The notes under the pieces are model-generated. The model did not search any database, was not told where the DNA came from, and was given only the letters and a program-made list of their open reading frames with translations. Of a stretch of DNA of 64,000 nt, positions 1 to 62,346 are shown piece after piece. Made by a program: the position numbers and the translations under genes. The stretch covers positions 53,694,001 to 53,758,000 of the forward strand of contig NC_086108.1 in NCBI RefSeq assembly GCF_963921235.1. Direction: 5' to 3'. The stretch is from Mobula hypostoma. Taxonomy: Eukaryota. How positions within the stretch are numbered: position 1 is the stretch's first letter; each line of letters starts with the position of its first letter.

Positions 1-332
1 TCCTTGCCCATCCTCTGGGCTTCCCCCCTCCCCCTTTCTTTCTCCCTAGGCCTCCTGTCCCATGATCCTCTCATATCCCTTTTGCCAATCAACTGTCCAG
101 CTCTTGGCTCCATCCCTCCTCCTCCTGTCTTCTATCATTTTAGATCTCCCCCTCCCCCTCCCCTTTTCAAATCTCTTACTAGCTCCTCTTTCAGTTAGTC
201 CTGACGAAGGGTCTCAGCCTGAAACGTCGACTGTACCTCTTCCTAGAGATGCTGCCTGGCCTGCTGCATTCACCAGCATTTTTTGTGTGTGTTGTTTGAA
301 ATTCCAGCATCTGCAGAGTTCCTCGTGTTTGC
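1..332 (+). mobile_element. 3' end / pseudo-LTR of a Penelope-like element (Neptune-type family), cut by window start
   Basis: Pyrimidine-rich tract, then agtcctgacgaagggtctcagcctgaaacgtcgactg...gatgctgcctggcctgctg...ccagcattttttgtgtgtgttg. The same tail ends the GIY-YIG-bearing copies at 56177-57239 and 60860-62075. Confidence 0.85.
197..232 (+). ncRNA. Minimal type-I hammerhead ribozyme motif in PLE pseudo-LTR
   Basis: AGUC-CUGACGA-(AGG gucucag CCU, stem II)-GAAA-C-GUC^GACU. Core boxes intact, stem I AGUC/GACU, loopless palindromic stem III (ACGU) as in PLE minimal hammerheads. Confidence 0.8.
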
Positions 333-339
333 AATATCC

Positions 340-1790
340 TTACAAGCAGGTTTGCTAGAGATGGTAGGGAGGGTTTAAACTAATTGGGCAGGGGTATTAG
401 GACAGGAGTGACAGGGCTGAGGAGGAGGCTTTTGGTATACAACTAGGTGCTGTGTGTAGTGAGACTGTGAGGAAGGACAGGCAGATGATAGGGCAATATT
501 GCAGTCAGTGGGATGAGTTAGTGTAACAGGGGACCAAAATCAGAAAGGGTGTTGAATAAAGACTGAAAGTGTTAAATTTGAAGGCATGCAGTATATGGAA
601 TAAGGTAGATGATCTGGAAGTGCACTTAGAAATTGACAAGTATGGTGTTATGGCCATCACTGAGTTGTAGCTCAAAGACCATAGTTGTGAGCTTAACTTC
701 CAAGGATACACCTTGTATTGAAAGGACAGCTGGTAGGCCGAGGAGGTGGGGTGGCCATGTTGGCAAAAAATGAAATCGAACTCTTAGAAAGAGGTGACAG
801 AGGATTGGAAGGTGTAGAATCCTTGTGAGTAATGTTATGAACCTGCAAGTTGATAAACCGTGATGAGAATTATATACAGGCCTCCGAACAGTAGCCAGGA
901 TGCGGTATATAAATCACAATGGGACATAGAAAATACATTTAAAAAGGGTAATGTTACAATAGCCATGGGGGATTTCAATATGCAGGTAGATTAGGGAAAT
1001 CATGTTAGTGCTGCATCCCTGTAGAGGGAATTTGTATAATGATACTGAAAGTTTTTTCAGATATATAAAGTGTAAAAGAGAGGCAAGAGTGTATATCAGA
1101 CTGCTAGAAAATGACACTGGAGAGGTAGTAATGAGGGACAATGAAATGGTGGGTGACCTTAATAAGTATTTTGCGTCGGTTTTCATTGTGGATGACACTA
1201 GCAGAATGCCAGAAGACCTGAGTGTTAAGGGCCAGAAGTGAGTGTAGTTGCTATTACTAAGGAAAAGGTGCTGGTGATGCCGAAAGGTCTGATGGTAGAT
1301 GTTGCCTGGACTAGATGAACTGCGCCCCAGCGTTCTGAAAGAGGTAGCTGAGAAGATTGTGGAGGCATTAGTAATCATCTTTCGAGAATCACTAGAATCA
1401 CTCCACTGTTTAAGAAGGGAGGGAGGCCAGTTAGCCTGACTTCAATGATTGAGAATGTGTCAGAGTCCACTATTAAGGATGAGGTCGGGGTACTTGGAGG
1501 CACCTGATAAAGTAGGCCAAAGTCAGCATGGTTTCTTTAAGGGGAGCTCTTGCCTGAAAAATATTAGAATTGTTTGATGAAGTAACAGGCAGGATGGACA
1601 AAGGACAGTCAGTAGATGTTGTTTGCTTGGATTTTCAGAAGGCCTTCGACAAGGTGCCACACATGAGGCTGCTTAAAAAGGTAAGAGGTTATGATATTAG
1701 AGGAAAGATACCATCACGGATAGAAGATTAGCTGATTGGCAAGCTGCAAAGAGTGGGAATAAAGGGGCCCTTTTCTGGATGGCTGCCTGA
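340..1790 (+). mobile_element. Degenerate CR1 LINE ORF2 (APE endonuclease to RT), many stops/indels
   Basis: Remnant motifs IYRPP, MGDFN, LNKYFASVF (ORF 1002-1241), QHGF, DFQKAFDKVPH. Confidence 0.85.
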
Positions 1791-5450: not shown

Positions 5451-6264
5451 ACCACTCTGCAGTAATTGTGAAGTATTAATGCACTAAAACTGCAATGTAA
5501 ATGGCTGACAACACACACAAAATGCTGGAGGAACTCAGCCGGTGTTGTATTTATGGCAGCAACAACAGAAAGAGTGAAGCAATTTTATAGTATTGGCAAA
5601 GAATACGTTTAATTAGGAGGTGATGGAATAATATAACCAGGAATGAAAAAGAAGAGAGAAAAGTGTTAAAGCAGGAACTTCATCTACTGTCTGTATAGAG
5701 TAAACATTCCTTTAAGTGGACAGCTTTCCCTTTCATGACCTCAAACATCTTCAGGTTCAAATTGTTCAGAAATTTATAAAATGCTGATTTCCAAAAAAAA
5801 AGTTTCCATTTGGAATCCGAACTATGTGTAGAGCACCCTGTGCTACAGGGGAATGCATTCTGAGAAAACTGTCCAGATCGCAGTTTTCCATTACATAATC
5901 CTTGGACTGAAATTGACAAAATATGTGTTTATTTAGTTTTTATTTTCCTCACACAAATTCTGCAAGAGCAAATTTTATTATATAGCACAAAGCTTTCGTT
6001 ATTGATTTGTGATTTCTGAAAGGGCAAATTTCCATTACCCAAACTGCCATAACTTGGGGAGTTTGATGTTAAAGTTGCTTTAATTATTGTTTGCCAATAT
6101 TAGTTTCATATTCTCTGATGTTGTAAATTATTTGTTTGAGGATTTGAGGCTGAATAAAACATAAAAGAGCACCTTAGCACTTTTACAAGAAGTTTGAATT
6201 CAGACCTTAATATATTAATTAGATCAAAGAACAATTGCCTGAAACTGAGATAGACATCTACGGT

Positions 6265-13108: not shown

Positions 13109-13665
13109 TACTGTCTGTTCTGTCTGCCCTATATTTCCAGTGTCTAGAAGGTTCACCAGGATTCTGAAGAAATATCAGAATAATACCATCCACAAACCTG
13201 TAAGGAAGCTCAAATCACAGCTTATTCAGGTCAAAAGATGACCTGGGACTCAGGATGACTGGCATTTACAGGATTCCCTGTGAATGCGGAGCTGTGTATA
13301 TCGGCCAGACAGGGTGTACAGTGGAAACCCGCATCAAGGAGCATAGAAGGTGTATCCATTTGGGTTACCCGGAGAAATTGGCGGTAGCAGAACTTTGCAT
13401 TTGAAATGGCCATAGGGTCGACTTCGACAGCACAAAGCTACTGTGCCATGCCAATGACTTTTGGGACCACCTGGTAAAGGAAGCCATTGAAATAAAACTG
13501 GAGGAAAAGAATTTTAACAAAGATGAAGGTCTCACTCCAAGTAAGAACCTGAATTCGATTGTAAACAAGGTAGGACAGCGGAAACCTGATTGGATGAGGA
13601 CTACCGATCAAGAAGGGCGGACAATGGAAGTATACATACCACTGGACTAGACTTGCCTAGGCATC

Positions 13666-13709
13666 ATCCCTGATGAAGATGACAGAGTTGGTCAAAAAAA
13701 ATGTTGGAT
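13666..13709 (+). ncRNA. Decayed minimal hammerhead motif in the second PLE family
   Basis: AUCC-CUGAUGA-aga UGAC agaguug GUCA-(A-run replacing GAAA)-GUU^GGAU. Stem I AUCC/GGAU intact, GAAA lost. Confidence 0.6.
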
Positions 13710-14294
13710 AAAATCGATACTTGAACCCAGCTGGATGCCTGAGAAGAGTTTATTTGTCATATACACCATAAAAGCACTAGTTCCTTATGCTTTTTATCAC
13801 CAAAGCAAGACTGATTCAGAAAATATCAAAGTACTCTCAGGGTTTATTCATAGTTTTAGGCAGAGTAATTGTGATAATTCTCTTTACCTCATATGTTGTA
13901 TATCCAACTGATCTTGAACTTGAATTGGAAATAACAGGCACTCTCAAATAAAAATGGTCCTTGCCAGTGGTAACATCCCTCACTGTGATGTGTGCAAACA
14001 AGAAATCCCAAACAATAACAAACACGATAAGCAGCCTTTGGATCACATCCTTGCAAGAATGGTGTGAAATTGCATCATTGGTACAACTTGTAATTCGTTT
14101 TTACAGAAGGATCTTCTGGCCATAATCTAAAGCACATTATCTGTAGTTAATTGCGGGGTGAATGTTTTGTTTTTGAGGTGAAAGGCTGTAAATTTGGTTT
14201 ATTATTAAAAGATAGTTTATGATTTTCTTTGAACACCTATCTCCACATATCCCTCCCTTTTAGAGCTTTCTGCTGCAGTCAGTCCTTTCACTTG

Positions 14295-21690: not shown

Positions 21691-22141
21691 TAAGTGGTGA
21701 CCTGTCAAAGTCATGGTCTGAACCAGTGGATGATTGTCTCTGTAGATCTGACCAAGAGCATTTATTAAGTGCACTCAGGTTCACTTCCCATAGATGGTGA
21801 GATCTGCTGGCCTGACAGAAGCACATTATACCTGTGATCAACTCACTGAAGCCTGAACACCTTGTGTCCATTTTCCAGGATCCCGTGACTGTGCAAGTGT
21901 TCTCCCAACGGCTAAGTGATATATATAAATGCAGGAGTAACTGGCAAATATGTGTGCATATATATACATATTGATAAAGGTGCTTTCTCACTCCTTCTTC
22001 ACCAGCATCCACTGCCATCAAGATGATAAATGACCAAGTGGTGAAAGTGTAACAGTTTCCCCTGGACTCTAGCCTCCAAGGAAGTTAATAAACTAAAATC
22101 ACCTGTAGTCCTGACCAGAACAAGGGACTCCCAATTTAAGC

Positions 22142-22142
<1 letters not shown>

Positions 22143-22208
<66 letters not shown>
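22143..22208. repeat. (AC)33 microsatellite expanded from a PLE pseudo-LTR tail
   Basis: Perfect AC run directly followed by gatgctggaggaactcaacaggccaggc; other copies have only aacacacacaaaatgctggagg. Confidence 0.95.
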
Positions 22209-22210
<2 letters not shown>

Positions 22211-22272
22211 TGCTGGAGGAACTCAACAGGCCAGGCAACATCTACGGAAATGAGAGACCCTTCATCGGGACT
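22209..22272 (-). mobile_element. Solo, internally deleted PLE pseudo-LTR with half a hammerhead
   Basis: Minus strand agtc-ccgatga-agggtctc, then the GAAA-GUC half is missing. Confidence 0.75.
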
Positions 22273-23532
22273 TCACATTTCTGGGTGTTGGGTGAGGACA
22301 AGTTCTGAGTGATGCTCTTCACGGCACTGACCCTGTGGCTGAGCAAAGGGTGGTCACTGTGCTGTGCCTATGAGCAACTGTCCTTGTGACAGGCAGTGGG
22401 CTCCGAAAAGCTGCAGTACTAACCAAGCTCGTTTGAAACTGTTGCTTTAAATTACATGTGTTGGGGCACTAGACTTTCAAAGAAAGATCTTTTAGGGAGA
22501 GGAATTTTAGAATCACGTGAGTTTCTCCTTTGTCAGATCTGATCACCAGCTATTCTTCTGTGGCAAATGTCGAAGAAAAAAGCAGTGCCTTTTAGCCTTG
22601 AAAAGTAATGCCAAGGTTCTCAAACGAGAGCACGAGCTGCAAATCACTAGGGTCCAGGGGAATTTGTTTTTTCTCTGGAATGGGGGAGGGTTTCAGGTCA
22701 CTGGGGTTAGCAGTTCTGTTCATTAAGTTAAAATCCATGTGTCATTATATGATGGGAAAGCTGGCTGGATGAAGTGGGGGCGGGGGTTAGTCTCTCCTCC
22801 CCTCACTGCCCCCATCCCCCCACAAAAACCATTCCGTGTCAGGAAAGAAATACTCAGCAAGCAAACTTCAATTGAAGCTGACAGAGGACTCGGCATGTCT
22901 GCTTTGTGTCTAACCAGGTCTGAAACATTTCTTGGGGGTCAAGACAAATGCTGGAAGCCATTTTAATGCAGAACAAAAAAGTTGATTGAAGAAAGACTGG
23001 TTTCCGCTACAGCTTCCTGCTGGGCCGACTGAGAAAGCTCAAGAAGAAAGTCACCTCCAGAAGAAAAGGCCTTTTTTTGTTATTTTTTGTTTTAATTCAA
23101 TTTTCCAGGAATTTTACATATTTCTTTACCTCTTCCAGAAACTTCTGCGGTGAATGACTATGTCCCATACAGGGATTCTGCTTCCTGAGCTCTTGGATGC
23201 TCCATCGCTGTTGGAATGGTGCTGTTAACACACCCACCCTTGTTGATCTTGGGAGAAAGAGGTGCTGATTCAACCTTGGATCCAAGGCCCATTGTATCCA
23301 TACAGTTATTTGACCACAGAGTAGCTACCCCAGCCACCCATCACTGACCGCACTCAGCCAAGGGCAGTGGGCCATCTGAGATGGTCGTACCAGCTGAGGG
23401 TCAGAACAAGGGGAAAATGACCTGTTTATATTCACACCTTTCCAGTTCATATTAATACGAGGCAGTGACAGCTCCCCTCCCTTATGGCGGCCGGAGGAAA
23501 AGGTGCTTGGAGGGAAAGGAAGCAGATGGGCA

Positions 23533-30504: not shown

Positions 30505-33066
30505 ATAGAACATAGAACATAGAATAGTACAGCACGGTACAGGCCCTTCAGCCCACAATGTTGTGCTGACCCTCAAACCCTGCCTCCCATATAAGCCCCC
30601 ACCTTAAATTCCTCCATATACCTGTCTAGTAGTCTCTTAAACTTCACTAGTGTATCTGCCTCCACCACTGACTCAGGCAGTGCATTCCACGCACCAACCA
30701 CTCTCTGAGTAAAAAACCTTCCTCTAATATCCCCCTTGAACTTCCCACCCCTTACCTTAAAGCCATGTCCTCTTGTATTGAGCAGTGGTGCCCTGGGGAA
30801 GAGGTGCTGGCTATCCACTCTATCAATTCCTCTTATTATCTTGTACACCTCTGTCATGTCTCCTCTCAACCTCCTTCTCTCCAAAGAGTAAAGCCCTAGC
30901 TCCCTTAATCTCTGATCATAATGCATACTTTCTAAACCAGGCAGCATCCTGGTGAATCTCCTCTGTACCCTTTCCAATGCTTCCACATCCTTTCTATAGT
31001 GAGGTGACCAGAACTGGACACAGTACTCCAAGTGTGGCCTAACCAGAGTGTTATAGAGCTGCATCATTACATCGTGACTCTTAAACTCTATCCCTTGACT
31101 TATGAAAGCTAACACCCCATAAGCTTTCTTAACTACCCTATCCAGCTGTGAGGCAACTTTCAGGGATCTGTGGACATGCACCCCGAGATTCCTCTGCTCC
31201 TCCACGCTACCAAGTATCCTGCCATTTACTTTGTACTCTGCCTTGGAGTTTGTCCTTCCAAAGTGTACCACCTCACACTTCTCCAGGTTGAACTCCATCT
31301 GCCACTTCTCAGCCCATTTCTGCATCTTATCAATGTCTCTCTGCAATCTTTGACAATCCTCTACACTACCTACAACACCACCAACCTTTGTGTCGTCTGC
31401 AAACTTGCCAACCCACCCTTCTACCCCCACATCCAGGTCGTTAATAAAAATCACGAAAAGTAGAGGTCCCAGAACAGATCCTTGTGGGACACCACTAGTC
31501 ACAATCCTCCAATCTGAATGTACTCCCTCCACCACGACCCTCTGCCTTCTGCAGGCAAGCCAATTCTGAATCCACCTGGCCAAACTTCCTTGGATCCCAT
31601 GCCTTCTGACTTTCTGAATAAGCCTACCATGTGGAACCTTGTCAAATGCCTTACTAAGATCCATATAGATCACATCCACTGCACTACCCCCATCTATATG
31701 CCTGGTCACCACCTCAAAGAACTCTATCAGGCTTGTTAGACACGATCTGCCCTTCACAAAGCCATGCTGACTGTCCCTGATCAGACCATGATTCTCTAAA
31801 TACCTATAGATCCTATCTCTAAAAATCTTTTCCAACAGCTTTCCCACCACAGACATAAGGCTCACTGGTCTATAATTACCCGGACTATCCCTACTACCTT
31901 TTTTGAACAAGGGGACTACATTCGCTTCCCTCCAATCCTCCGCTACCATTCCCATGGACAACGAGGACATAAAGATCCTAGCCAGAGGCTCAGCAATCTC
32001 TTCTCTCGCCTCATGGAGCAGCCTGGGGAATATTCCATCAGGCCCCGGGAACTTATCTGTCCTAATGTATTTTAACAACTCCAGCACCTCCTCTCCCTTA
32101 ATATCAACATGCTCCAGAACATCAACCTCACTCATATTGTCCTCACCATCATCAAGTTCTCTCTCATTGGTGAATACCAAAGAGAAGTATTCATTGAGGA
32201 CCTCGCTCACTTCCACAGCCTCCAGGCACATCTTCCCACCTTTATCTCTAATCGGTCCTACCTTCACTCCTGTCATCCTTTTTTTCTTCATATAATTGAA
32301 GAATGCCCTGGGGTTTTCCTTTACCCTACTCACCAAGGCCTTCTCATGCCCCCTTCTTGCTCTTCTCAGCCCCTTCTTAAGCTCCTTTCTTGCTTCCCTA
32401 TATTCCTCAATAGACCCATCTGATCCTTGCTTCCTAAACCTCATGTATGCTGCCTTCTTCCACCTGACTAGATTTTCCACCTCACTTGTCACTCATGGTT
32501 CCTTCACCCTACCATTCTTTATCTTCCTCACCGGGACAAATTTATCCATAACATCCTGCAAGAGATCTCTAAACATCGACCACATGTCGATAGTACATTT
32601 CCCTGCAAAAACATCATCCTAATTCACACCCGCAAGTTCTAGCCTTATAGCCTCATAATTTGCCTTTCCCCTATTAAAAATTTTCCTGTCCTCTCTGATT
32701 CTGTCCTTTTCCATGATAATGCTAAAGGCCAGGCAGCGGTGGTCACTGTCCCCCAGATGCTCACCCACTGAGAGATCTGTGACCTGACCCGGTTCATTAC
32801 ATAGTACTAGATCTAGTACGGCATTCCCCTGGTCGGCCTGTCCACATACTGTGACAGGAATCCGTTCTGGACACAGTTAACAAACTCTGCCCCATCTAAA
32901 CCGTTGGAACTAACCAGGTGCCAATCAATATTAGGGAAGTTAAAGTCACCCATGATAACAACCCTGTTATTTTTGCACCTTTCCAAAATCTGCCTCCCAA
33001 TCTGCTCCTCTGTATCTCTGCTGCTACCAGGGGGCCTATAGAATATCCCCAATAGAGTAACTGCTT
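30505..33066 (-). mobile_element. Young 5'-truncated CR1 LINE, copy 1
   Basis: (TTCTATG)n tail at about 30505-30525, continuous RT ORF, partial APE domain (GIFYRPP, MGDFNFP) with a 1-bp frameshift near 32825 and a TAG near 32620. Confidence 0.95.
30573..32492 (-). CDS. CR1 ORF2 reverse transcriptase, uninterrupted 639-aa portion
   Basis: [67 protein letters not shown]. No ORF1 or promoter, so probably not expressed. Confidence 0.9.
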   Translation of the reverse strand: MTSEVENLVRWKKAAYMRFRKQGSDGSIEEYREARKELKKGLRRARRGHEKALVSRVKENPRAFFNYMKKKRMTGVKVGPIRDKGGKMCLEAVEVSEVLNEYFSLVFTNERELDDGEDNMSEVDVLEHVDIKGEEVLELLKYIRTDKFPGPDGIFPRLLHEAREEIAEPLARIFMSSLSMGMVAEDWREANVVPLFKKGSRDSPGNYRPVSLMSVVGKLLEKIFRDRIYRYLENHGLIRDSQHGFVKGRSCLTSLIEFFEVVTRHIDGGSAVDVIYMDLSKAFDKVPHGRLIQKVRRHGIQGSLARWIQNWLACRRQRVVVEGVHSDWRIVTSGVPQGSVLGPLLFVIFINDLDVGVEGWVGKFADDTKVGGVVGSVEDCQRLQRDIDKMQKWAEKWQMEFNLEKCEVVHFGRTNSKAEYKVNGRILGSVEEQRNLGVHVHRSLKVASQLDRVVKKAYGVLAFISQGIEFKSHDVMMQLYNTLVRPHLEYCVQFWSPHYRKDVEALERVQRRFTRMLPGLESMHYDQRLRELGLYSLERRRLRGDMTEVYKIIRGIDRVDSQHLFPRAPLLNTRGHGFKVRGGKFKGDIRGRFFTQRVVGAWNALPESVVEADTLVKFKRLLDRYMEEFKVGAYMGGRV

Positions 33067-34034
33067 TATAGAGAAAATGCTGATGATACTGGTAGTATGG
33101 ATGCTGAGGGACAGAGTTAAATTTTTGGATTGATGCCTTTCCTCAGAATAGGTCTGTAGTTGTATTTTGCTTTTTACATATGGAGTTTTGATGTGCCTGG
33201 AATAAATGGCAGAAGCTAAGGAGAAGCCAGTGTGGCAGTCAGTATAATTAAGTCACATTGTGCATGAATGAATATGACTGTACTATACTTAGAGGAGTGG
33301 TTGTAAATGCACGTTCTGGGAGTGTTTAATGTGACGGCCTGCCCTGCTGTACCCCTAAGAAGGAGCCAAATATGCCATGTTGCTGTGTCGAGGGCTTACT
33401 TTGCTTTCCAGATTCTCTTCTTAACGTGACCCCATTTCCAGTTCTTTCGAGTTGCTGCCTTTGACCTTTGCATAGAGTGCTCACGCTTAGACGTCTGGCA
33501 CTTGTACAAAAGCTTCCTTAAACAACGCAAAGGGAGAATGCTTGATGAAGCAACAAATGATGTTTAAAACAAACAGTGGCCCAGCAAAATGACCAGTCTT
33601 TTCTCATCAAGAGCACGACAGCCAGTTCAGATGGAAGCTTTTCACACCACACAAAGACTGCTTGTCTATTGGGATTCCTGCTCAATGTGGCAATGTCTTA
33701 GCTTCAATGAACAAAGCACATCTCATGGATATATTGCTCACTATTGTTTGGAATGGTGTATTCCTTCCCCCCTGCTTTAGATCTGGGTGGTGTGGCAGAA
33801 GGCAATGAATTTCGGAAATGTTGATCTTTAGATGCATTGATAAGCTGCTGTTGTAGGCATTAGGTGTTTGCCTTATGACCTCTAGTCCTAATTCCTGTTC
33901 CCTAAAGTAACCTGCTGCAGCTTCTATTGGCCAAGATAAATATATGGGGTTAAATGAGGTTATCCTTGTCAGTACTGAATGATTGAGTTGCTTTTACTTT
34001 AATTAGCATGTAGGAGAAGATACAATAGCTTCAT

Positions 34035-40810: not shown

Positions 40811-41003
40811 ATATACTCTAGATTTTATTTACTAATTCAAGGGTAAATTGAAAGACAATAAAGCAAAGAAAATCTTTCACATTTCGTAAACTTTTTCTCA
40901 TCCATCTTTATTACAAATCCATTGTCTATAAACACTGTTCAGATTAATTTTGTATCACAGTGGCAAAAGCGAAATGTTTTGATTAGACAGTGTCCATGTT
41001 CAA

Positions 41004-41510
41004 GCAACACACACAAAATGCTGGAGGAAGTCAGCAGGCCAGGCAGCATCTACGTGAAAGAGTAAACAGTCGACATTTTGGGCCAAGATCCTTCATTAGG
41101 ACTGGGGGAAAAAAAGGTTGGAGAGGGGAGAAAGAAGTACAGGGTGTCAGAGGGCATAGAGATCGCAGAGGGGGCGCAGTGAGAGAGGGTTTCTCGAACT
41201 CCCTTTGAAGGACAGATTTGAATTTTTCAGGGTGGGCATTCCTGGAAGAGACTTCACAGTGTAGTAGTAGCACAAAGATGAGAACATCTGCAGATTCTGG
41301 AAATCCAAGCAATGCACACAAAATGCTGGAGGAACTCAGCAAGTCAGGCAGCATTAATGGAAAAGAATGCAGTCGACATTTCAGGAGGCCATGCAGCATC
41401 TATGGAAAAGAGTAAACAATCGACATTTTGGGATGGTACTCTTCATCAGGATTGGAAAAAAAGATGAGAAGTTAGAGCAAAAAAGTGTGGGGAGGGGAGG
41501 AAGAACTACA
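41004..41510 (-). mobile_element. Non-autonomous PLE derivative: tandem pseudo-LTRs with three hammerhead remnants around a ~170-bp spacer
   Basis: Pseudo-LTR copies at about 41004-41140 and 41275-41510, the latter with a 47-bp internal duplication. Hammerhead remnants at 41067-41104, 41370-41385 (half) and 41417-41454. Confidence 0.75.
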
Positions 41511-41954
41511 AATGTCAGTGTTCAGCGGCCTAGTGGTTTATTAACAATGAGCTTCTGAGTTCCATTCTGTGTTTATTGTTACAATTTGTAACAGTATTGT
41601 AAATTGAAACACTGACAGTATAAATATATTGAAGCTTTAAAATGTTTCAAAGTAAAGGTTGAGGTACATTTATTATTTAGAAATTTATGGATTATATTCA
41701 TTAAAACATAATTGCAGGGTATTTTGCAATTATATTAATATAGATTTCAAAATATATTACCATAATTTCAAAATTATATTAACATTATATAAAAGAAAAT
41801 TCCACCTGTGCAGCAACAAAGGCTATGTGTGCAGGAGCAATTCAATTATTGAGGAGCTGTTCACCCAGGCAGATTAGAGGGAACAGTGCCGCTGTTTATG
41901 GATTATGGCTCAGCTTTCAACACCATGATATCAGTACTAATCAACAAGCTCTAA

Positions 41955-42270
41955 AATGCTCAATGAAGCAGCCTCCCGATTTATGATAGGTCTCACCAAT
42001 GTAGAGGAGGCTGCATTGGGAGCACTGGACACAATAGACGACGCAGCAGATATGCAGGACAAGTGTTGCCTCACCTGGAAGGACTGTTTGGGGCCCTGGA
42101 TGGAGGTGAGGGAGGAGGTGAATGGACCGGTGTGGCACTTGCACTGCTTGCAGGGTTAAGTGCCAGGAACAAGATTAGTGGGGAGGGAGGAATGGACAAA
42201 GGAATTATGGAGGTAGCAATCCCTGTGGAAGGTGAAGTGGGGTGGGGAGGTAAAGAGTTACATGATGGAG
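41955..42270 (-). mobile_element. Neptune-type PLE GIY-YIG fragment
   Basis: VVYCVQCSQCSLLYIGET..GGCFIEH (ORF 41941-42144). Confidence 0.85.
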
Positions 42271-48967: not shown

Positions 48968-51900
48968 ATAGAACATAGAACATAGAATAGTACAGCACAG
49001 TACAGGCCCTTCGGCCGACATAGTTATGCAGACCCTCAAACCCTGCCTCCCATATAACCCCCCATCTTAAATTCCTCCATATACCTGTCTAGTAGTCTCT
49101 TAAACTTCACGAGTGTATCTGCCTCCACCACTGACTCAGGCAGTGCATTCCATGCACGAACCACTCACTGAGTAAAAAACCTTCCTCTAATATCCCCCTT
49201 GAACTTCCCACCCCTTACCTTAAAGCCATGTCCTCTTGTATTGAGCAGTGGTGCCTTGGGGAAGAGTCGCTGGCTATCTACTCTATCTATTCCTCTTAAT
49301 ATCTTATACACCACTATCGTGTCTCCTCTTATCCTCCTTCTCTCCAAAGAGTAAAGCCCTAGCTCCCTTAATCTCTGATCATAATGCATACTCTCTGAAC
49401 CAGGCAGCAACCCGGTAAATCTCCTCTGTACCCTTTCCAATGCTTCCACATCCTTCCTATAGTAAGGTGACCAGAACTGGACACAGTACTCCAAGTGTGG
49501 CCTAACCAGAGTTTTATAGAGCTGCATCATTACATCGCGACTCTTAAACTCTATTCCTCGACTTATGAAAGCTAACACCCCATAAGCTTTCTCCAGATCC
49601 CTCTGCTCCTCCACACTACCAAGTATCCTGCCATTTACTTTGTACTCTGCCTTGGAGTTTGTCTTTCCCAAGTGTACCACCTCACATTTCTCCTGGTTGA
49701 ACTCCATCTGCCACTTCTCAGCCCACTTCTGCATCCTATCAATGTCTCTCTGCAATCTTCGACAATCCTCTACGCTATCTACAACACCACCAACCTTTGT
49801 GTCTTATGCAAACTTGCCAACCCACCCTTCTACCCCCACATTCAAGTCATTAATAAAAATCATGAAAAGTAAAGGTCCCAGAACAGATCTTTGTGGGACA
49901 CCACTAGTTACAATCCTCCAATCTGAATGTACTCCCTCCATCACGACCCTCTGCCTTCTGCAGGCAAGTCAATTCTGAATCCACCTGGCCAAACTTCCCT
50001 GGATCCCATGCCTTCTGACTTTCTGAATAAGCCTACCATGTGGAACCTTGTCAAGTGCCTTACTAAAATCCATATAGATCACATCCACTGCACTACCCTC
50101 ATCTATATGCCTGGTCACCTCAAGGAATTCTATCAGGCTTGTTAGACATGATCTGCCCTTCACAAAGCCATGCTGACTGTCCCTGATCAGACCATGATTC
50201 TCTAAATGCCCATAGATCCTATCTCTAAGAATCTTTTCCAACAGCTTTCTCACCACAGACGTAAGGCTCACTGGTCTATAATTACCCGGACTATCCCTAC
50301 TACCTTTTTTGAACAAGGGGACAACATTCTCCTCCCTCCAATCCTCCGGTACTATTCCCGTGGACAACGAGGACATAAAGATCCTAGCCAGAGGCTCAGC
50401 AATCTCTTCTCTCGCCTCATGGAGCAGCCTGGGGAATATTCCGTCAGGCCCTGGGGACTTATCCATCATAATGTATTTTAACAACTCCAACACCTCCTCT
50501 CTCTTAATATCAACATGCTTCAGAACATCAACCTCACTCATATTGTCCTCACCATCATCAAGTTCCCTCTCATTGGTGAATACCGAAGAGAAGTATTCAT
50601 TGAGGACCTCGCTCACTTCCACAGCCTCCAGACACATATTCCCACCTTTATCTCTAATCGTTCCTACCTTCACTCCTGTCATCCTTTTGTTCTTCACATA
50701 ATTGAAGAATGCCTTGGGGTTTTCCTTTACCCTACTCGCCAAGGCCTTCTTATGCCCCCTTCTTGCTCCTCTCTTTTCTTTTTAAATCTTTTTATTAACT
50801 TTTCAAAGTTATAAACTCAGTAACAAAGTTAGTACAAAGAGATTGGAATATTGTTCATCAGCATATATAAAATGAATTTTAAGTAACATAGATATAAAAG
50901 ACTTCCAAACTCATAATGAAATTAATCATTAAAAAAAGAAATAGAAAGAAAAGAAATATATAAACAAAAAAAAACCCAAAAGAAAAAAAGAACCCCCCCC
51001 AAAAAAAAAGCAAAACAGGGCTAGACCAACAGCATGTACCAGACACGTTCAATAATGTCGTTAACTCCGCTCCTGTCATCATGTAATTTAAGTTTAGAAA
51101 AAAGATTCGGAAAGGTCAGATTACATCATATGAAAATGTTGCATAAAAGGTTTCCAAGTTTCTTCAAATTTAATCGAAGGGTCAAAAATTTAACTTCTAA
51201 TTTTTTCTAAATTTAAACTTAATATGGTTTGAGAAAACCATTGGAATGTAGTTGGAGGATTAGTTTCCTTCCAATTCAACGAAACAGATCTCCTCGCCAT
51301 TAAAGTAACAAAAGCTATCATTCGACAGGCTGAAGAAGACAAAGATCTATGTTCTACCATTGGCAATCCAAAGATTGCCATAATAGGATGGGGTTTTAAA
51401 TCGAAGCGTAGAATTGTTGAAATAATATCAAAAATGTCTTTCCAATATTTTTCCAAAAGAGGACAGGACCAAAACATATGAGTTAAAGAAGCCACTTCAG
51501 AGTGACATCTATCACAAGTAGAGTTTATATGGGAATAAAAACGAGCTAGTTTATCTTTGGACATATGAGTTCTGTGTACTACTTTAAATTGTATTAATGT
51601 ATGTTTAGCACATATAGAAGAAGTACTAACTAATTGAAAAATGTTTTCCCATTTCTCTATAGGTAGGGAAAGTTGAAGTTCCCTTTCCCATTCATTTTTT
51701 ATTTTATCAGATATATCTGGCTGTAATTTCATAATTATATCATAAATTATTACTATTAATCCCTTCTGCAAAGGATTAAAACCTAAAATTTTATCAAAAA
51801 TGCCAGAAGGATTTGAAGTCGGAAAGGTAGGCAACATAGTATTTTAAAAATTTCTTATTTGTAGGTATCTAAAAAAATGGGATCTAGGCAAATCAAATTT

Positions 51901-53237
51901 CTCAGATAACTGCTCAAAAGACATAAAGCAGTTATCCAGAAATAGATCATGAAAACATATTATACCTTTCGTTTACCATATCAAAAAGGCTTGGTCCATT
52001 ACCGAGGTATGGAAAAAGAAATTAGATATAATAGGGCTTGATAACATAAATTCATTCAGGCCAAAAAATTTATGAAATTGAAACCATATTCGCAATGTAT
52101 GTTTAACTATGAAAATTTGTTTATTCAATTTAGATAGTGCAAAAGGCAGTGAAGTTCCTAAAATGGAAGCTAAAGAAAACCTTTGTACAGAATGGCCTTC
52201 AAGGTTTACCCAATATGGGCTTGGAGTTGTATTCCAATCTTGTGTCCAGAATATTAAATATCGGATATTAATTGCCCAATAGTAAAATCTTAGGATAAGC
52301 AATGCCAAACCACCCTCTTTCTTAGATTTCTGTAAGTATTTTTTACTTAATCTGGGATTTCTATTTTGCCATATGTAAGAGGAAATTTTAGAGTCAATAG
52401 TATCAAAAAAAGATTTAGGAATAAAAATCGGTATCACTTGAAATAAATATAAAAATTTGGGTAAAATAATCATTTTAATAGCATTAATACAGCCAATCAG
52501 TGATAGAGACAAAGGGGACCATTTAGTAATCAGTTGTTTAACCTGATTAATTAATGGTAAAAGGTTGAAATTGAATAGATCCTTATGTCTCTTAGTAATT
52601 TTAACTCCCAATTTTAACTCTTCTCAGCCCCTTCTTAAGCTCCTTTCTTGCTTCCCTATAATCCTGAATAGACCCATCTGATCCTTGCTTCCTAAACCTC
52701 ATGTATGCTGCCTTTTTCCACCTGACTAGATTTTCCACCTCACTTGTCACCCATGGTTCCTTCACCCTACCATTCTTTATCTTCCTCACCAGGACAAATT
52801 TATCCCTAACATCCTGCAAGAGATCTCTAAACATCGACCACATGCCCATAGTATATTTCTCTGCAAAAACATCATCCCGATTCACATCTGCAAGTTCTAG
52901 CCTCACAGCCTCATAATTTGCCCTTCCCCAATTCAAAATTTTCCTGTCCTCTCTGATTCTATCCTTTTCCATGATAATGCTAAAGGCCAGGGAGCGGTGG
53001 TCACTGTCCCCCAGATGCTCACCCACTGAGAGATCTGTGACCTGACCTGGTTCATTACCTAGTACTAGATCTAGTATGGCATTCCCCCTAGTCGGCCTGT
53101 CAACATAACTGTGACAGGAATCCGTCCTGGACACACTTAACAAACTCTGCCCCATCTAAACCCTTGGAACTAATCAGGTGCCAATCAGTATTAGGGAAGT
53201 TAAAGTCACCCATGATAACAACCCTGTTATTTTTGCA
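48968..53237 (-). mobile_element. Young 5'-truncated CR1 LINE, copy 2 (48968-50773 and 52618-53237), split by L1
   Basis: Near-identical to copy 1. ORFs 49165-49755, 49969-50742, 52601-53155. Stop codon in the FADD motif, in-frame 54-bp deletion near 49590. Confidence 0.95.
50774..52617 (-). mobile_element. 5'-truncated L1-clade LINE
   Basis: KWSPLSLSLIG.INAIKMIILPKFLYLFQ, KKEGGLAL...FYYWA, zinc knuckle CDRCHSEVASLTHMFWSC, AATAAA + A-rich tail, TSD ctcctctc (50766-73) / ctcttctc (52618-25). Confidence 0.93.
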
Positions 53238-54424
53238 GAAGGTGATAAGGACAAATGTGTGAAAGAAAAACTGATGTATGGGAGCATAATGTGAATAACT
53301 GGAATAATATGTCATGTGCTGTGAATGACAGCATTGGAAACATATTTTACTGTGAGTGACACTGTATAAATGTGTTGTACTTGGAAAGGTTTTGGGGAAA
53401 ATCAAGGATTGATTGGAAGGACATCGCATCAGAGATTACCTACACCAGTGATCCTATTCCACTGTGACATCTCTGGGAAAGGAGGGGCAAGCCCAGATTT
53501 AGGAAAGCATTCAGTCAGGGAGAATGCAATAGCAAGCAATGCAATAGAAGCAAAGTGGTTGTTGTAACACTTTCATTGTAACAGCTTCGTTCGGTTTGGC
53601 TAAAATTCTAACGTAAATCATGATGATCCTTTATCTTATCTATAATGAGATTGAGGTACAACTGAGTTTTAACTATCTGCATATGTCTTTTTTTTAAAGA
53701 AGTATTTTCACTGATTTTCTCAGACAGTTGATTACTTTGATGCCTGTCCAGACTTTCAGCATGAATTTTGTTAAATCTGTATCTATGAGGAGAGACAGAA
53801 TTCCAGACTGTTAAGTGCTGGTATGCCAAAACATTTTTTGGGTAGTCTTAAAGGATTAAGCTGAGAAATGGACTGCATGGAAGTCCGCAGGGCAAAATGA
53901 CTTTGATCCAAGTAGCTACGCATACTGTTGGTGTGGGAAATATAAATACCATGGCAGGGCAATGCTTTTCTGAAAGTGGGAGATTAAAGCACAGATTATC
54001 AGAATTACAAGTTTAATTCAATCATTGCAACTTTAGTTTAGTCACAGTGATTGCTGCCAGATTTGGACTGAGTGTCACTTTATGGAAGTTGGGACACTAA
54101 GATTGAAATGTGTCCTGGGTCATAGATTCTAAATGTGATAGTGATACAATAATAGTGGACAAGCCTATTCATCTCCACTGTTGATATCTGGTCAATAGAA
54201 TCAATATTCTAAGATGGAGTTCAATGCGCATGGGATGCAATTACATTTTCAACTTGGTTTTCCGGAGACCTGTGTGAACTAACCAGTTTTAACTTGATTT
54301 CAAATCCCACCATGTGATCTGTATTCACTCAACTCAATGCAAACAGAAACTGCTAGCTCTGTAGTGGTGACAGGTGCCCTTCACGGGAGAAAATCTAAAC
54401 CTCTTTGCATGGTCTATGTCGACC

Positions 54425-55759: not shown

Positions 55760-57530
55760 ATATAGATTTATACAGCAGATAAGCAGACTCTTTGGCCCAA
55801 TTGGTCTATTCCAATAAAGATGCCCATCCAAGCTTGTCTCAACCTTTGAAACCTGTGTACCTGTCCAACTGACCTTTCAAAGTTGTTATTGTACCTTTCT
55901 CAACCACTTCCTCCTGCAGCTCATTCTCTATATGTTCCAATCTGTATAAAATAAAGTTGCCCATCAAGTTCCTTTGAAATCTCTCCTCTCTCACTTTAAA
56001 CCGGAACTCCCCAGTCCTTGATTCCCCAAGTCTGGGAAAAGACTAAGTGCATTTACCATGTCTCTGCCCCTCATATATACTCCTACAATCCATGGAAGAG
56101 AGACCAAGCCTGACCAACCTCTCCCTATAACTCAATCCCTTGAGTTCTGGCAATATCCTTGTAAATATTTTCTACAGCAACGTCCAGAAAATGCCAGAGG
56201 AATACAGCAGGCCGGGCAGCATCTATGAAGGGGAATGAACAGTCGATGTTTCCAGCCAAGACCCTTCATCAAGACTGAAAGAGACCAGAATAAGAAAGTG
56301 GGAGGAGGGGGAAGGAGTACAAGCTGGCTGGTGATAGGTGAAAGCAGGTGAGGGGGAAAGTGGGTGAGTTGTGGGTGGGGTTTGAAGGCAGAAGCTGAGA
56401 AGTGATAGGTGGAAGAGGTAAAGGGATGAAGAAGGAGGAATCTGATCGGAGAGGACAGTGGACCATGGGAGAAAAGGGAGGAGAAGGGGCATCACAGGAA
56501 AGTGACGGGCAGGTAAGGAGAAGGAAAGAGTTAAGAGGGGAGCCTGAAATGGGAATGGTAAAGGAGAGGGGAGGGAAAGAATCACTAAACGTTAGAGAAA
56601 TTGATGTTCATGCCATCAGTTTGGAGGCTGTACCCAGACAGAATATGAGGTGTTGCTCCTCCAGCCTGAGAGTGGCCTCGTTGCAACAGTAGAGGAGCCC
56701 ATGGGCTGACGTGTCAGAATGGGAATGGGAAGTGGAATTAAAATGGGTGGCCACTGGAAAACACCCACCGTCTGTAGCAGATGGAGCAAAGGTGTTTGAC
56801 AAATGGGTTCCCCAATCTACATCTGGTCTCCCCAATATGGAGGAGGCCGCACTGAGAGCACCAGATACAGTAGCAGGTGAAGTGTCAGCCGCCTCATCTG
56901 GAAGGACTATTTGGCGCTCTGAAAGGTGATGAGGGGGGAGGGGTAGCTGCTTGCAGGTATAAGTGCCAGGAGGGAGATCAGTGGGCAGGGACAAGTGGAC
57001 AACAGGGTCACGTAGAGAGAAAATCCCTGCAGAAAGCAGAGAGTGGTGGGGAGATGTGTTTAGTCATATGATCCCAATGAAGGTGACGGAAGTTACTGAG
57101 AATAATTTGTTGGACTTGGAAACTCATGGGTGGTAGGTGAACTCCATCTCATTTATGGGAATGGGAAGATGGGATGAGGGCAGATGTCTGGGAAATGGAG
57201 GAGATGCTGGTGAGGGTGGCATTGATGATAGAGGGTGAGAAATATTTTTGACACACTTACCAGTTTAATAACATCTTTCCTATAGGTGGGTGACCAAAAC
57301 TGAGCATAATACTTCGTGTGACATCACCAGTGTCTTATACAACTGCAACATAACTTCTCAACTTCTATACTCAATGGCCTGACTGAAGAGTGCCAACATA
57401 CAAAAAGCCTTCTTCACCAACCTGTATACCTGGAACTACTCTTTCAGGGAACCTTGTACCTGAACTCAACACTTCCCAGCGCCCAAATGTTCACTGTGAC
57501 AGTCCTACCTTGATTTGACTTTAGAATTTG
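55760..57530 (-). mobile_element. Older CR1 3' part (55760-56176 and 57240-57530) split by a PLE
   Basis: CR1 remnants are colinear across the insertion (Y.QFWSPTYRKDV on the right, FTRILPELK on the left). Confidence 0.75.
56177..57239 (-). mobile_element. Neptune-type PLE 3' part with pseudo-LTR and hammerhead remnant (56240-56277)
   Basis: PPGTYTCK, FPVATHFNSTSHSHSD, RLEEQHLIFCLG (ORF 56608-56994). Motif cagtc-TTGATGA-agggtcttggctg-GAAA-c-ATC-gactg. Confidence 0.9.
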
Positions 57531-57684: not shown

Positions 57685-58370
57685 CTTACCTGAAGTTGTA
57701 GCATTTGATATTGCATTCCAAAGGCTGCAACATTTTCAGAGAGAAGAAGGGATGCTGTTCCTCAATTTCCATTTGGATTTGTTACAACAGTACAGGATGC
57801 CATGGATAGATTGGTCAGAGTAGAGATGGGATGGGTAACTAAAGGATAAGTAACTAGAAGTTCATGATCACCCCTGTGAACTGAACATAGGGGTTCCATA
57901 GACCAGTCACCCAAACTGCATTTAGCTTCTCCAGTGTAGAGGAGACCACAAAGTGCAATAGACTTGATTAAAAGAAGCACAGGTAAATTGCTGCTTCACC
58001 TGGAAGGAATGCTCCAGTCACTGGATGATGAAAAGGGAAGAAGTAAAGGGGTTGTTTGCATAAACAGGTCTGATGATGAGACTTTCCACTTCAGTACCTC
58101 CGAAATGTCTTCCTTCGTTCTGAGCCATGACTTCCCCTCATAGCTGGTAACTACATTTATTTCCCACATATCTCTTCACCTCCACATTCAACAGATTATC
58201 TTTCTCAATTTCCGTCATCTTCAATGAGATTCCAGCCTTCTCCACAAGTCTTCTCCTCCACGTCTTAGCATTATGAAACAACTGTTTCCTTTGCAAATTC
58301 TGGGTCCTCTCTTCCATCTTTCCCACTCAGACCATTCACATTTAGTTTCCCATGCAAACTCAGCATGTCC
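57685..58370. mobile_element. Two old PLE fragments in opposite orientation (57685-58055 minus; 58065-58370 plus)
   Basis: CGLLYTGEAKCSLGD (ORF 57762-57980); SDDETFHFSTSEMSSF RT-thumb remnant. Confidence 0.65.
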
Positions 58371-60859: not shown

Positions 60860-62075
60860 AGCAGGTCTTTCTGGTCTTGGTGCTTCAGTACTTCATCTGT
60901 TTTAGTGGTGAGCCACTGTCTTCATTGTTAAATTGCAGCAACCATCATGACATTGCTATTTTAATTTGCACACAGAAGAACTTTGATGTCCTCCTTCTTC
61001 AAAGAACGGATATCAGAGATGTTCTCCTTCAAAGAATGGTGTTTCCCCTTCTCCAGCATTGATAGTACCCTAACCCACATCTCCTCCATTTCCTGAACAT
61101 CCATGCTTACCCCATCTTCCCGCCACCTTAACTGTGATAGTTCCTCTTGACCTTCCCTACCGCCCCATGATCTTCCAATCTTCCACCATCTCAAAAGGCA
61201 TCTGACCACCGAGCACATCTTTACCTCTCCCCCCACCCCAGTTTTCCACAGGGATCGCTCCCCCTGTGATTCCCTCGTCCATTTGTCCCTCCCCACTAAT
61301 CTCCCTTCCGACACTTATCCCTGCAAGTGGCCAAAGTGCCACACCTACCCATTCACCTCCTCCCTCACCTCCATTCAGAGACCCAAACTGCCCTTCCAGG
61401 TGAGGCACACTTCACCTGCAAATCCAGAGGGGTTGTCTATTGTGTCCGGTGCTCTCGATGTTGCCTCTTTTACGTTGGTGAGACCTGTCAAAAATTGGGT
61501 CTGCTTCGCTGTACACCTCCACTCCATCTGACAGAAGCGGAACTTCCCAGTGACCAAACATTTTAATTGTGATTCCCATTCCCATTCTGACATGTGTTCC
61601 ATGGCCTCCTCTTGTGCCACGATGAGGCCACCCTCAGGGTGGAGGATCAGCACCTTGTATTCCATCTGGGTAGCTTCCAACCTGATAGCATGGATATCGA
61701 TTGCTCTTTCTGGTTTAAAAAAAAATTCCCTCCCCCCGCCTTCTCTTCTTTTGTTCCCCACTCTGGTTTCTTACTGTTTCTCACATGTCTATCACTTCCC
61801 CAGGGCCTTTCCTCCCTCGCTTTCTCAAATGGTCCACTCTCCTGTCCTATCAGATTCCCTCCTCTCCAGCCCTTTATCTTTTCTAACCACCTGGCTTCAC
61901 CTATCACCTTCTAGCTATCCCCCTTCCCCTCCCCCGCCCACCTTTATATTCCAGCAACTTCCGCTTCCTTTCCAGTCCTGAAGAAGGCTGCTGGCCCAAA
62001 ACATTAAATGTTTGTTCATTTCCATGGATGCTACCTGACCTGCTGAGTTCCTCCAGTATTTTGTGTGTGTTGTTT
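60860..62075 (+). mobile_element. Neptune-type PLE 3' part (Cys linker, GIY-YIG, pseudo-LTR with decayed hammerhead 61973-62010)
   Basis: TYPCKWPKCHTYP (decayed CX4CX2C linker), GVVYCVRCSRCCLFYVGET, RVEDQHLVFHLGSFQPDSMDID. Confidence 0.9.
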
Positions 62076-62346
62076 TGAAATGAGACCTTGGTTTCATTTC
62101 ATGCCCCATCTCTTCCTCACTGCAGCTGCTGATCAAAAATAAAATCCAGACCATCCGCAACAGGCCGACAACAAATGCCATTTCATTGGCTCTTCACTGA
62201 ACCCTGGAACATCTGACAGCAAAGAAGCACACATCAGGATACTCTCCATTGACTACATCTCTGCATTCAATACTATCATCTCCTCAAAGCTAATCAATAA
62301 GTTCCAAGACCTTGGCTGCAATACCTCCTTGTGCAACTGGTTTCTT

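Follow-up and report, generated by a model that had tools for sequence, protein, structure and literature searches.

An undamaged minimal hammerhead motif at the 3′ end of a Penelope-like element in Mobula, probably a passenger copy

Does the hammerhead motif at positions 197..232 of the plus strand, near the start of the window (the whole 64-kb stretch of Mobula hypostoma DNA analysed here), belong to a ribozyme that cuts its transcript, or is it a copy that a retroelement has left behind? The original prediction had placed two catalytic boxes, a stem I of AGUC/GACU, a loopless ACGU stem III and a GUC triplet in this stretch, and descriptor scanning, folding and comparison of copies recovered every one of them there. 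The boxes are CUGACGA at 201-207 and GAAA at 221-224, stem I pairs 197-200 with 229-232 and is lengthened by U196·G233, the palindrome ACGU occupies 224-227 without a loop, and the triplet GUC at 226-228 puts the predicted cut after C228. Positions within the motif are given below in hammerhead numbering. The core CUGANGA, GAAA and UH triplet required of minimal hammerheads (min-HHRs) of Penelope-like elements (PLEs) are all present at 197..232, and so is their type-I layout, in which stem I closes the motif, loop 3 is absent and 15.2-16.2 is palindromic. Two scans had been named as checks on the prediction. A type-I descriptor matched once over both strands of the window (128 kb), and the Rfam hammerhead families gave no match at gathering score in the whole window; at E ≤ 10 over 1-600 Rfam returned two weak unrelated matches and no hammerhead. 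Short PLE variants required a custom descriptor in the original survey too (PMC4209133). As a control for chance, 300 dinucleotide shuffles of the sequence were scanned, and the loopless form arose in one of them, a relaxed form in 8%. Both boxes occur together at 10 places in the window and four sites combine at most two core mismatches with both stems, zero mismatches being found only at 201. We conclude that the 36-base motif is a genuine, undamaged copy of the hammerhead known from the ends of Penelope-type elements, and that its assignment as a minimal type-I hammerhead of the published PLE kind, lying in a PLE terminal region, is supported.

Stem II was predicted to be short, which it is, and its register can be stated more precisely. 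In the favoured fold of 195-234, A208 is left unpaired and stem II consists of four pairs between 209-212 and 217-220, two of them wobbles (G209·U220, G210-C219, G211-C218 and U212·G217), with pair probabilities of 0.88-0.98; the register that pairs A208 with U220 has a probability of 0.02 in the same stretch and was discarded. Because the favoured register leaves A208 unpaired, pair 10.1:11.1 is G·U instead of the usual G-C. A G-C at this pair is called highly conserved in PMC4209133, and our own count over Figure S3 of that paper found G·U in 8 of the 56 published minimal hammerhead rows; since these rows carry the same wobble, the G·U pair lies within the natural range. By the register probabilities, A208 is the extra nucleotide between 9 and 10.1 that is a published min-HHR trait (PMC4209133). 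No measurement of the kinetic cost of G10.1·U11.1 was found in the literature searched.

For comparison with unrelated hammerheads, metagenome contigs were scanned with a pattern that fixed stem II and pair 2.1:1.1. The scan yielded seven loci (L001-L007) in three unrelated families, all seven with C at 11.1. Five of these loci belong to one family and differ in their 3′ flanks, and no PLE protein match at E < 0.01 was found within 300 bases of any of the seven. Four near-identical loci were dropped, leaving a set of four rows, one for each metagenome family and one for the focal motif. All three stem I pairs that the pattern left free change on both sides in this set, with a covariation score of 0.595 that was reached in 0 of 500 shuffles and compares with at most 0.19 in slid controls. 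The stem covariation anticipated for the motif was thus seen for stem I across four rows of unrelated families, stem II being fixed by the search pattern. This small set supports the architecture of the motif, not the activity of the focal copy.

To which element does the motif belong? Alignment of three window remnants led to one protein and from it to nine more, seven of which are named from sharks and rays. Pfam searches with six of the retrieved proteins found GIY-YIG in all six (two above the cut-off) and a reverse transcriptase (RT) domain in two (one above it); P0002 has GIY-YIG above the cut-off and a weak RT match, and P0004 a weak GIY-YIG match (E 5e-4) under the cut-off. None of seven fragments of the family's own window remnants matched GIY-YIG in Pfam. 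The retrieved proteins were placed by tblastn upstream of three sister copies, where endonuclease remnants lie. Focal bases 3-65 translate to a peptide that matches the last 19 residues of P0004, from Mobula, with a score of 82 (0 of 5000 shuffles; the best site over all six frames), and the C-terminus of P0007, from Hypanus, with a score of 74. Because 3-65 matches these two C-termini, 1-196 is the region just past the endonuclease in the focal subfamily. The order of EN+ PLEs, with RT followed by a C-terminal GIY-YIG endonuclease upstream of the motif, was found through the homologues, the sister copies and the 3-65 link, and the focal motif lies within 1-334, the 3′-terminal part of a Penelope-like element of very high abundance. 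Two of the retrieved proteins, P0005 and P0010, are ray gene models named kinase-domain protein and neuromedin-U receptor that contain the endonuclease of this PLE; they are exonized or mis-annotated PLE pieces.

The clade was assigned from a linker motif and not from an RT tree. Seven of the ten proteins, P0004 and P0007 among these, carry a CX2-5CxxC linker ahead of the endonuclease, and decayed forms of it are visible in the window remnants. This linker is a mark of Neptune and Nematis (PMC8557442) and so is not exclusive to Neptune. A 2026 preprint (bioRxiv 10.64898/2026.07.22.740005) reports only Neptune and Poseidon PLEs from vertebrate classes; Neptune was chosen over Nematis because vertebrates held only these two, and Poseidon was dropped on the presence of the linker. 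The element is thus probably of Neptune type.

The window start cuts the focal copy. Its first 196 bases (1..196, plus strand) are a pyrimidine-rich 3′ UTR, into which P0004 and P0007 read at 3-65 and which has high depth in four of four sequencing runs. Comparison of 1-196 as a DNA homologue of the upstream parts of four sister copies gave a weak match in one (2 of 500 shuffles) and none in three, and was abandoned; it places 1-196 in the UTR of another subfamily than the sister copies in the window. Downstream of the motif, the first ATG stands at 249, and 233..300 (plus strand) is the conserved 3′ part of the terminal module, common to seven other window copies. The following 335..1782 (plus strand) is a decayed non-LTR LINE with no PLE ORF, recognized by tblastn with the window's own RT ORF (E 1e-14 at 1504-1782) and by endonuclease-like peptides in 335-1000; we take this LINE to be CR1-type. 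Because decayed LINE and not PLE ORF follows from 335 onward, the focal copy is the 3′ end of an insertion. Of the pseudo-LTR named in the original prediction, the PLE terminal region is supported. In its strict sense the term requires a tandem placed before another PLE ORF; no such ORF follows on the 3′ side, and a tandem unit could lie on the 5′ side, beyond the window. Between module and LINE, 301..334 (plus strand) is an optional extension common only to the copy ending near 41273, these two copies reaching ~35 nt past the ends of four others. The extension probably corresponds to the optional PLE 'tail' of 30-40 bp described in PMC11167929, which links it to two reverse-transcription starts, and in PMC8557442, a comparison that involves few copies (two longer against four).

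A profile built from seven seed copies was searched against the window, with the reversed window as a control, and gave eight matches at E < 1e-7 and five weak ones at E 0.12-2.5, against none in the control. Five copies in the window span the motif, and four of the five lack at least one of the 12 core positions; the motif with its box at 201 is alone intact among these full-length copies, just as had been predicted. The older sister copy at 60953..62102 (plus strand), which has RT-linker and endonuclease remnants, carries a motif at 61974-62009 without G12 and pair 15.2:16.2. On the minus strand, an older copy with endonuclease remnants at 56156..57250 has lost C3 and pairs 10.1:11.1 and 15.2:16.2 from its motif at 56276, the copy at 41273..42257, with an endonuclease remnant, lacks G12 in its motif near 41453, and the short copy at 40963..41113 lacks G5 and G12 at 41103. 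Another short minus-strand copy, at 22192..22286, has an internal deletion that takes the 3′ half of the motif, and 5508..5572 (minus strand; profile match E 6e-8) is a 3′ module fragment without motif. Core losses fall mostly in columns alternating CG, TG and CA, and pairwise identity over 197-300 is 68-83% among four copies.

Some arrangements of these copies deserve mention in their own right. At 41273-41463 (minus strand) two terminal modules stand in partial tandem, the second starting at 41385; they are joined at a short common stretch, and both motifs are broken. The family copy at 22140-22286 (minus strand) runs out into a long GT microsatellite, which agrees with the preference for microsatellites described for Neptune-like elements (PMC8557442). 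A further endonuclease remnant of the family, at 57689-58280 on the minus strand, lies next to a piece in the opposite orientation and is not followed by a motif.

To follow the family beyond the window, contigs of 4 of 24 runs (X1, X5, X9 and X17) were placed on 1-1200 at 90% likeness. Summed depth in X1 was 1.0e7 at 201-240 as against 160 at 521-560, figures that mark abundance and not copy number. The share of C at 220 was 31% in X1, 35% in X5, 79% in X9 and 21% in X17, and CpG-type change at 226 was 3-10%. Sites 56, 95, 182 and 246 shift in step with 220; in this first linked set (56, 95, 182, 220 and 246) other letters account for 12-35% in organisms A and B and 72-87% in C, and in a second linked set (48, 92 and 234) for 19-62% in A and B and less than 1% in C. 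On these shares the two sets are successive subfamily waves after the species split. Because the shares at 220 vary with the linked sites, U220 is a trait of the subfamily expanded in organisms A and B. The U at 220 and the A at 216 might have arisen by CpG decay in the focal copy alone, an explanation that was dropped: in two of three DNA runs most look-alikes have U at 220, and no other letter at 216 or 205 appears among the differences listed.

Over 1-334 the focal copy differs from the X1 majority at at least three sites (92, 295 and 301), and also by a clipped patch near 278-285 and small indels near 72 and 130. This suggests that the copy is young, on contigs whose preselection at 90% likeness favours the window letters. 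It would then be the only intact copy in the window because it belongs to a younger subfamily and not because of function; with U220 a subfamily trait and the copy young, intactness needs no selection. In X9 and X17, loose contig ends accumulate at 197 and 234, which indicates that subfamilies whose flanks differ have preserved the motif best. Among the loose ends listed there is no pile at 228/229, and in the window there are no copies truncated at the cut site. None of the contigs listed bridges 334/335, the junction that bears on orthology of the insertion. Low-depth back-joints across the motif, for example from 235 to 197 and from 329 to 198, occur in other copies (190-329; runs X1 and X5), and suggest a few head-to-tail motif repeats elsewhere in related genomes, candidate cis dimers. 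In the run guessed to be RNA the family is represented by look-alikes alone, which give neither strand nor locus.

Folding was used to ask how the motif would behave at its own locus. In the predicted monomer, pairing of 203-206 with 225-228 produces a rod and buries the triplet (ensemble frequency 0.59; z −1.5). Stem I has a probability of at least 0.9 in short contexts and of 0.08-0.13 in 170-300 and 150-340, and the best predicted structures of 185-300 and 190-334 retain it. Predicted energies, which leave out Mg2+ and tertiary contacts, are −12.7 kcal/mol for an active-like dimer, 2 × −11.6 kcal/mol for two rods and −26.4 kcal/mol for the best duplex. No intact partner motif for the focal copy, and no array in which two or more intact motifs stand in tandem, was found in the window, and the nearest sister motif on the plus strand is 61.8 kb away and broken. 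In published relatives, PLE min-HHRs showed no cleavage as monomers and low cleavage as dimers (PMC4209133), dimer cleavage is also credited to Lunse et al. (cited in PMC6765202), and one of nine Xenopus hammerhead dimers was cleaved (bioRxiv 10.64898/2026.07.22.740005). The hammerhead of PAc, the Poseidon element of Anolis carolinensis, cleaved only with protein, its catalytic mutants were without effect on insertion in vitro, and the Anolis RNA-seq described had no ends at its cut site (Frangieh et al. 2024, PMC11167929). The models make it most likely that the focal copy at its own locus is an inactive rod, cutting little or nothing.

Taken together, we favour, at a probability of roughly 0.8, the reading that the focal motif is a passenger, namely a copy of the usual minimal hammerhead carried by a Neptune-type Penelope-like retrotransposon of rays. 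In an active master element the motif would be located after the endonuclease ORF, and in a tandem transcript two motifs would join through their ACGU palindromes, forming a stem III of 4 bp, and would exchange stem I strands. By analogy with published relatives, the paired motifs would be cut after C228, probably with the help of the element's protein. Reverse transcription would have brought the focal copy to its present site as the 3′ part of an insertion, ~35-nt tail included, and the copy would owe its intactness to a younger, heavily amplified subfamily, its neighbours having decayed mostly at CpG positions. Catalytic chemistry may persist in the motif, given a complete core and a G·U pair shared by 8/56 natural rows. 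It is nevertheless unlikely that the copy is live in vivo, with a plus-strand transcript that pairs with an intact copy, upstream in cis or in trans and perhaps chaperoned by the PLE protein, and is cut between 228 and 229. In favour of such cutting, the copy lacks none of the 12 core bases and has both stems, the self-complementary ACGU would let any two family members pair, sequencing depth over the family is very high, the run guessed to be RNA contains look-alikes, and sequence upstream of base 1 could hold a partner, back-joints across the motif being present in other copies; but the 64 kb contain no intact partner, the active-like dimer is predicted ~10 kcal/mol above two rods, and stem I is improbable in the longer contexts. 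The search for a host exon was also negative, with 0 matches at cut-off and five sub-threshold when Pfam was run on those 235 of the 385 unmasked ORFs that have at least 55 aa, a search that short exons would escape. The PAc precedent bears on both sides, since its hammerhead cleaves with protein and Anolis RNA-seq lacks the expected ends (PMC11167929). A broader version, which we regard as improbable, is that dispersed copies of this enormously amplified family pair via ACGU, either in trans or over the length of long transcripts, and with PLE protein as a helper cleave host RNAs in many places; the G·U closing pair of the younger subfamily would then have attenuated cutting and so made the amplification tolerable.

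A second alternative is that the motif has no cutting role in this lineage. Master elements might retain it because it helps folding or binds protein close to where reverse transcription begins, with G·U spreading freely: in organisms A and B, U220 became more frequent together with four linked changes during continued amplification, PAc insertion in vitro tolerates catalytic mutants (PMC11167929), and Naiads thrive without hammerheads (PMC8557442). Conservation of the catalytic bases and stem I pairing between families, the pile of loose ends at the motif borders 197 and 234, and the status of G·U as a natural variant make this very improbable; as a proposal about the family, it does not conflict with the passenger explanation of the focal copy. 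Hardly any weight is left for a chance match or a co-opted host ribozyme. The relaxed descriptor matches 8% of shuffles, Rfam is silent and the folding z is only −1.5, but the rarity of the loopless form (1/300 shuffles), the seven homologous copies in the window with none in the reversed control, and the embedding of the motif in a PLE terminus refute chance and speak against co-option, and the contigs listed gave no sign of conservation specific to the locus.

This kind of hammerhead is already described in the literature, and the ray family is an added member. Like the focal motif, the min-HHRs of Cervera and De la Peña (2014, PMC4209133) are type I, without loop 3, with palindromic 15.2-16.2 and an extra nucleotide; they have a short stem I and a U-rich upstream region, and they occupy the 3′ end of PLE copies, most of which are truncated. 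In its core and junction letters the Acropora Neptune row is identical to the focal motif. None of the 56 rows comes from a cartilaginous fish, whereas the focal host is a ray, and the focal stem II, with 4 bp, two wobbles and G·U at 10.1:11.1, departs from the majority G-C. PAc resembles the focal copy in carrying its hammerhead in a terminal module and in having two element ends some 30-40 nt apart (the tail) after it; it differs in belonging to the Poseidon clade and in an ORF that starts in stem II, whereas the first ATG here follows the motif, and its activity was measured, whereas the focal motif is known from sequence alone (PMC11167929). In Neptune EN+ PLEs (Craig et al. 2021, PMC8557442), as in the focal family, a CX2-5CxxC linker comes before a C-terminal GIY-YIG, and a hammerhead is found close to the 3′ end. 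Non-LTR retrozymes also have type-I hammerheads derived from PLE termini, and were reported in the one chondrichthyan sampled (bioRxiv 10.64898/2026.07.22.740005); they form tandem arrays, whereas the focal copy has no adjoining unit on its 3′ side, its 5′ side lying beyond the window. No description of the cartilaginous-fish family was found in the literature searched, and the preprint supplements or Repbase/Dfam may already cover it.

The focal locus alone matters little. The ray family is a test bed for whether, and why, PLE hammerheads cut in vivo, with very many young copies, a fixed predicted cut site, statistical power, and two natural 10.1:11.1 forms whose frequency differs between related species, and it permits strand-bias, truncation-point and RNA-end tests.

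Other repeats in the window were noted in passing. At 13204-13720 (plus strand) lies a remnant of a second, unrelated PLE family, with a GIY-YIG match below the Pfam cut-off (E 0.0011) and no CX2-5CxxC linker seen, which makes it Penelope/Poseidon-like; it is followed by its own decayed minimal hammerhead, with a core from ~13670 that has lost G12. Two minus-strand LINE copies, at 30505-33150 and 48968-53435, are 93-96% identical to each other; the former retains a 639-aa RT frame, and nested in the latter, at 51.2-52.6 kb, is a piece that carries a zf-RVT domain.
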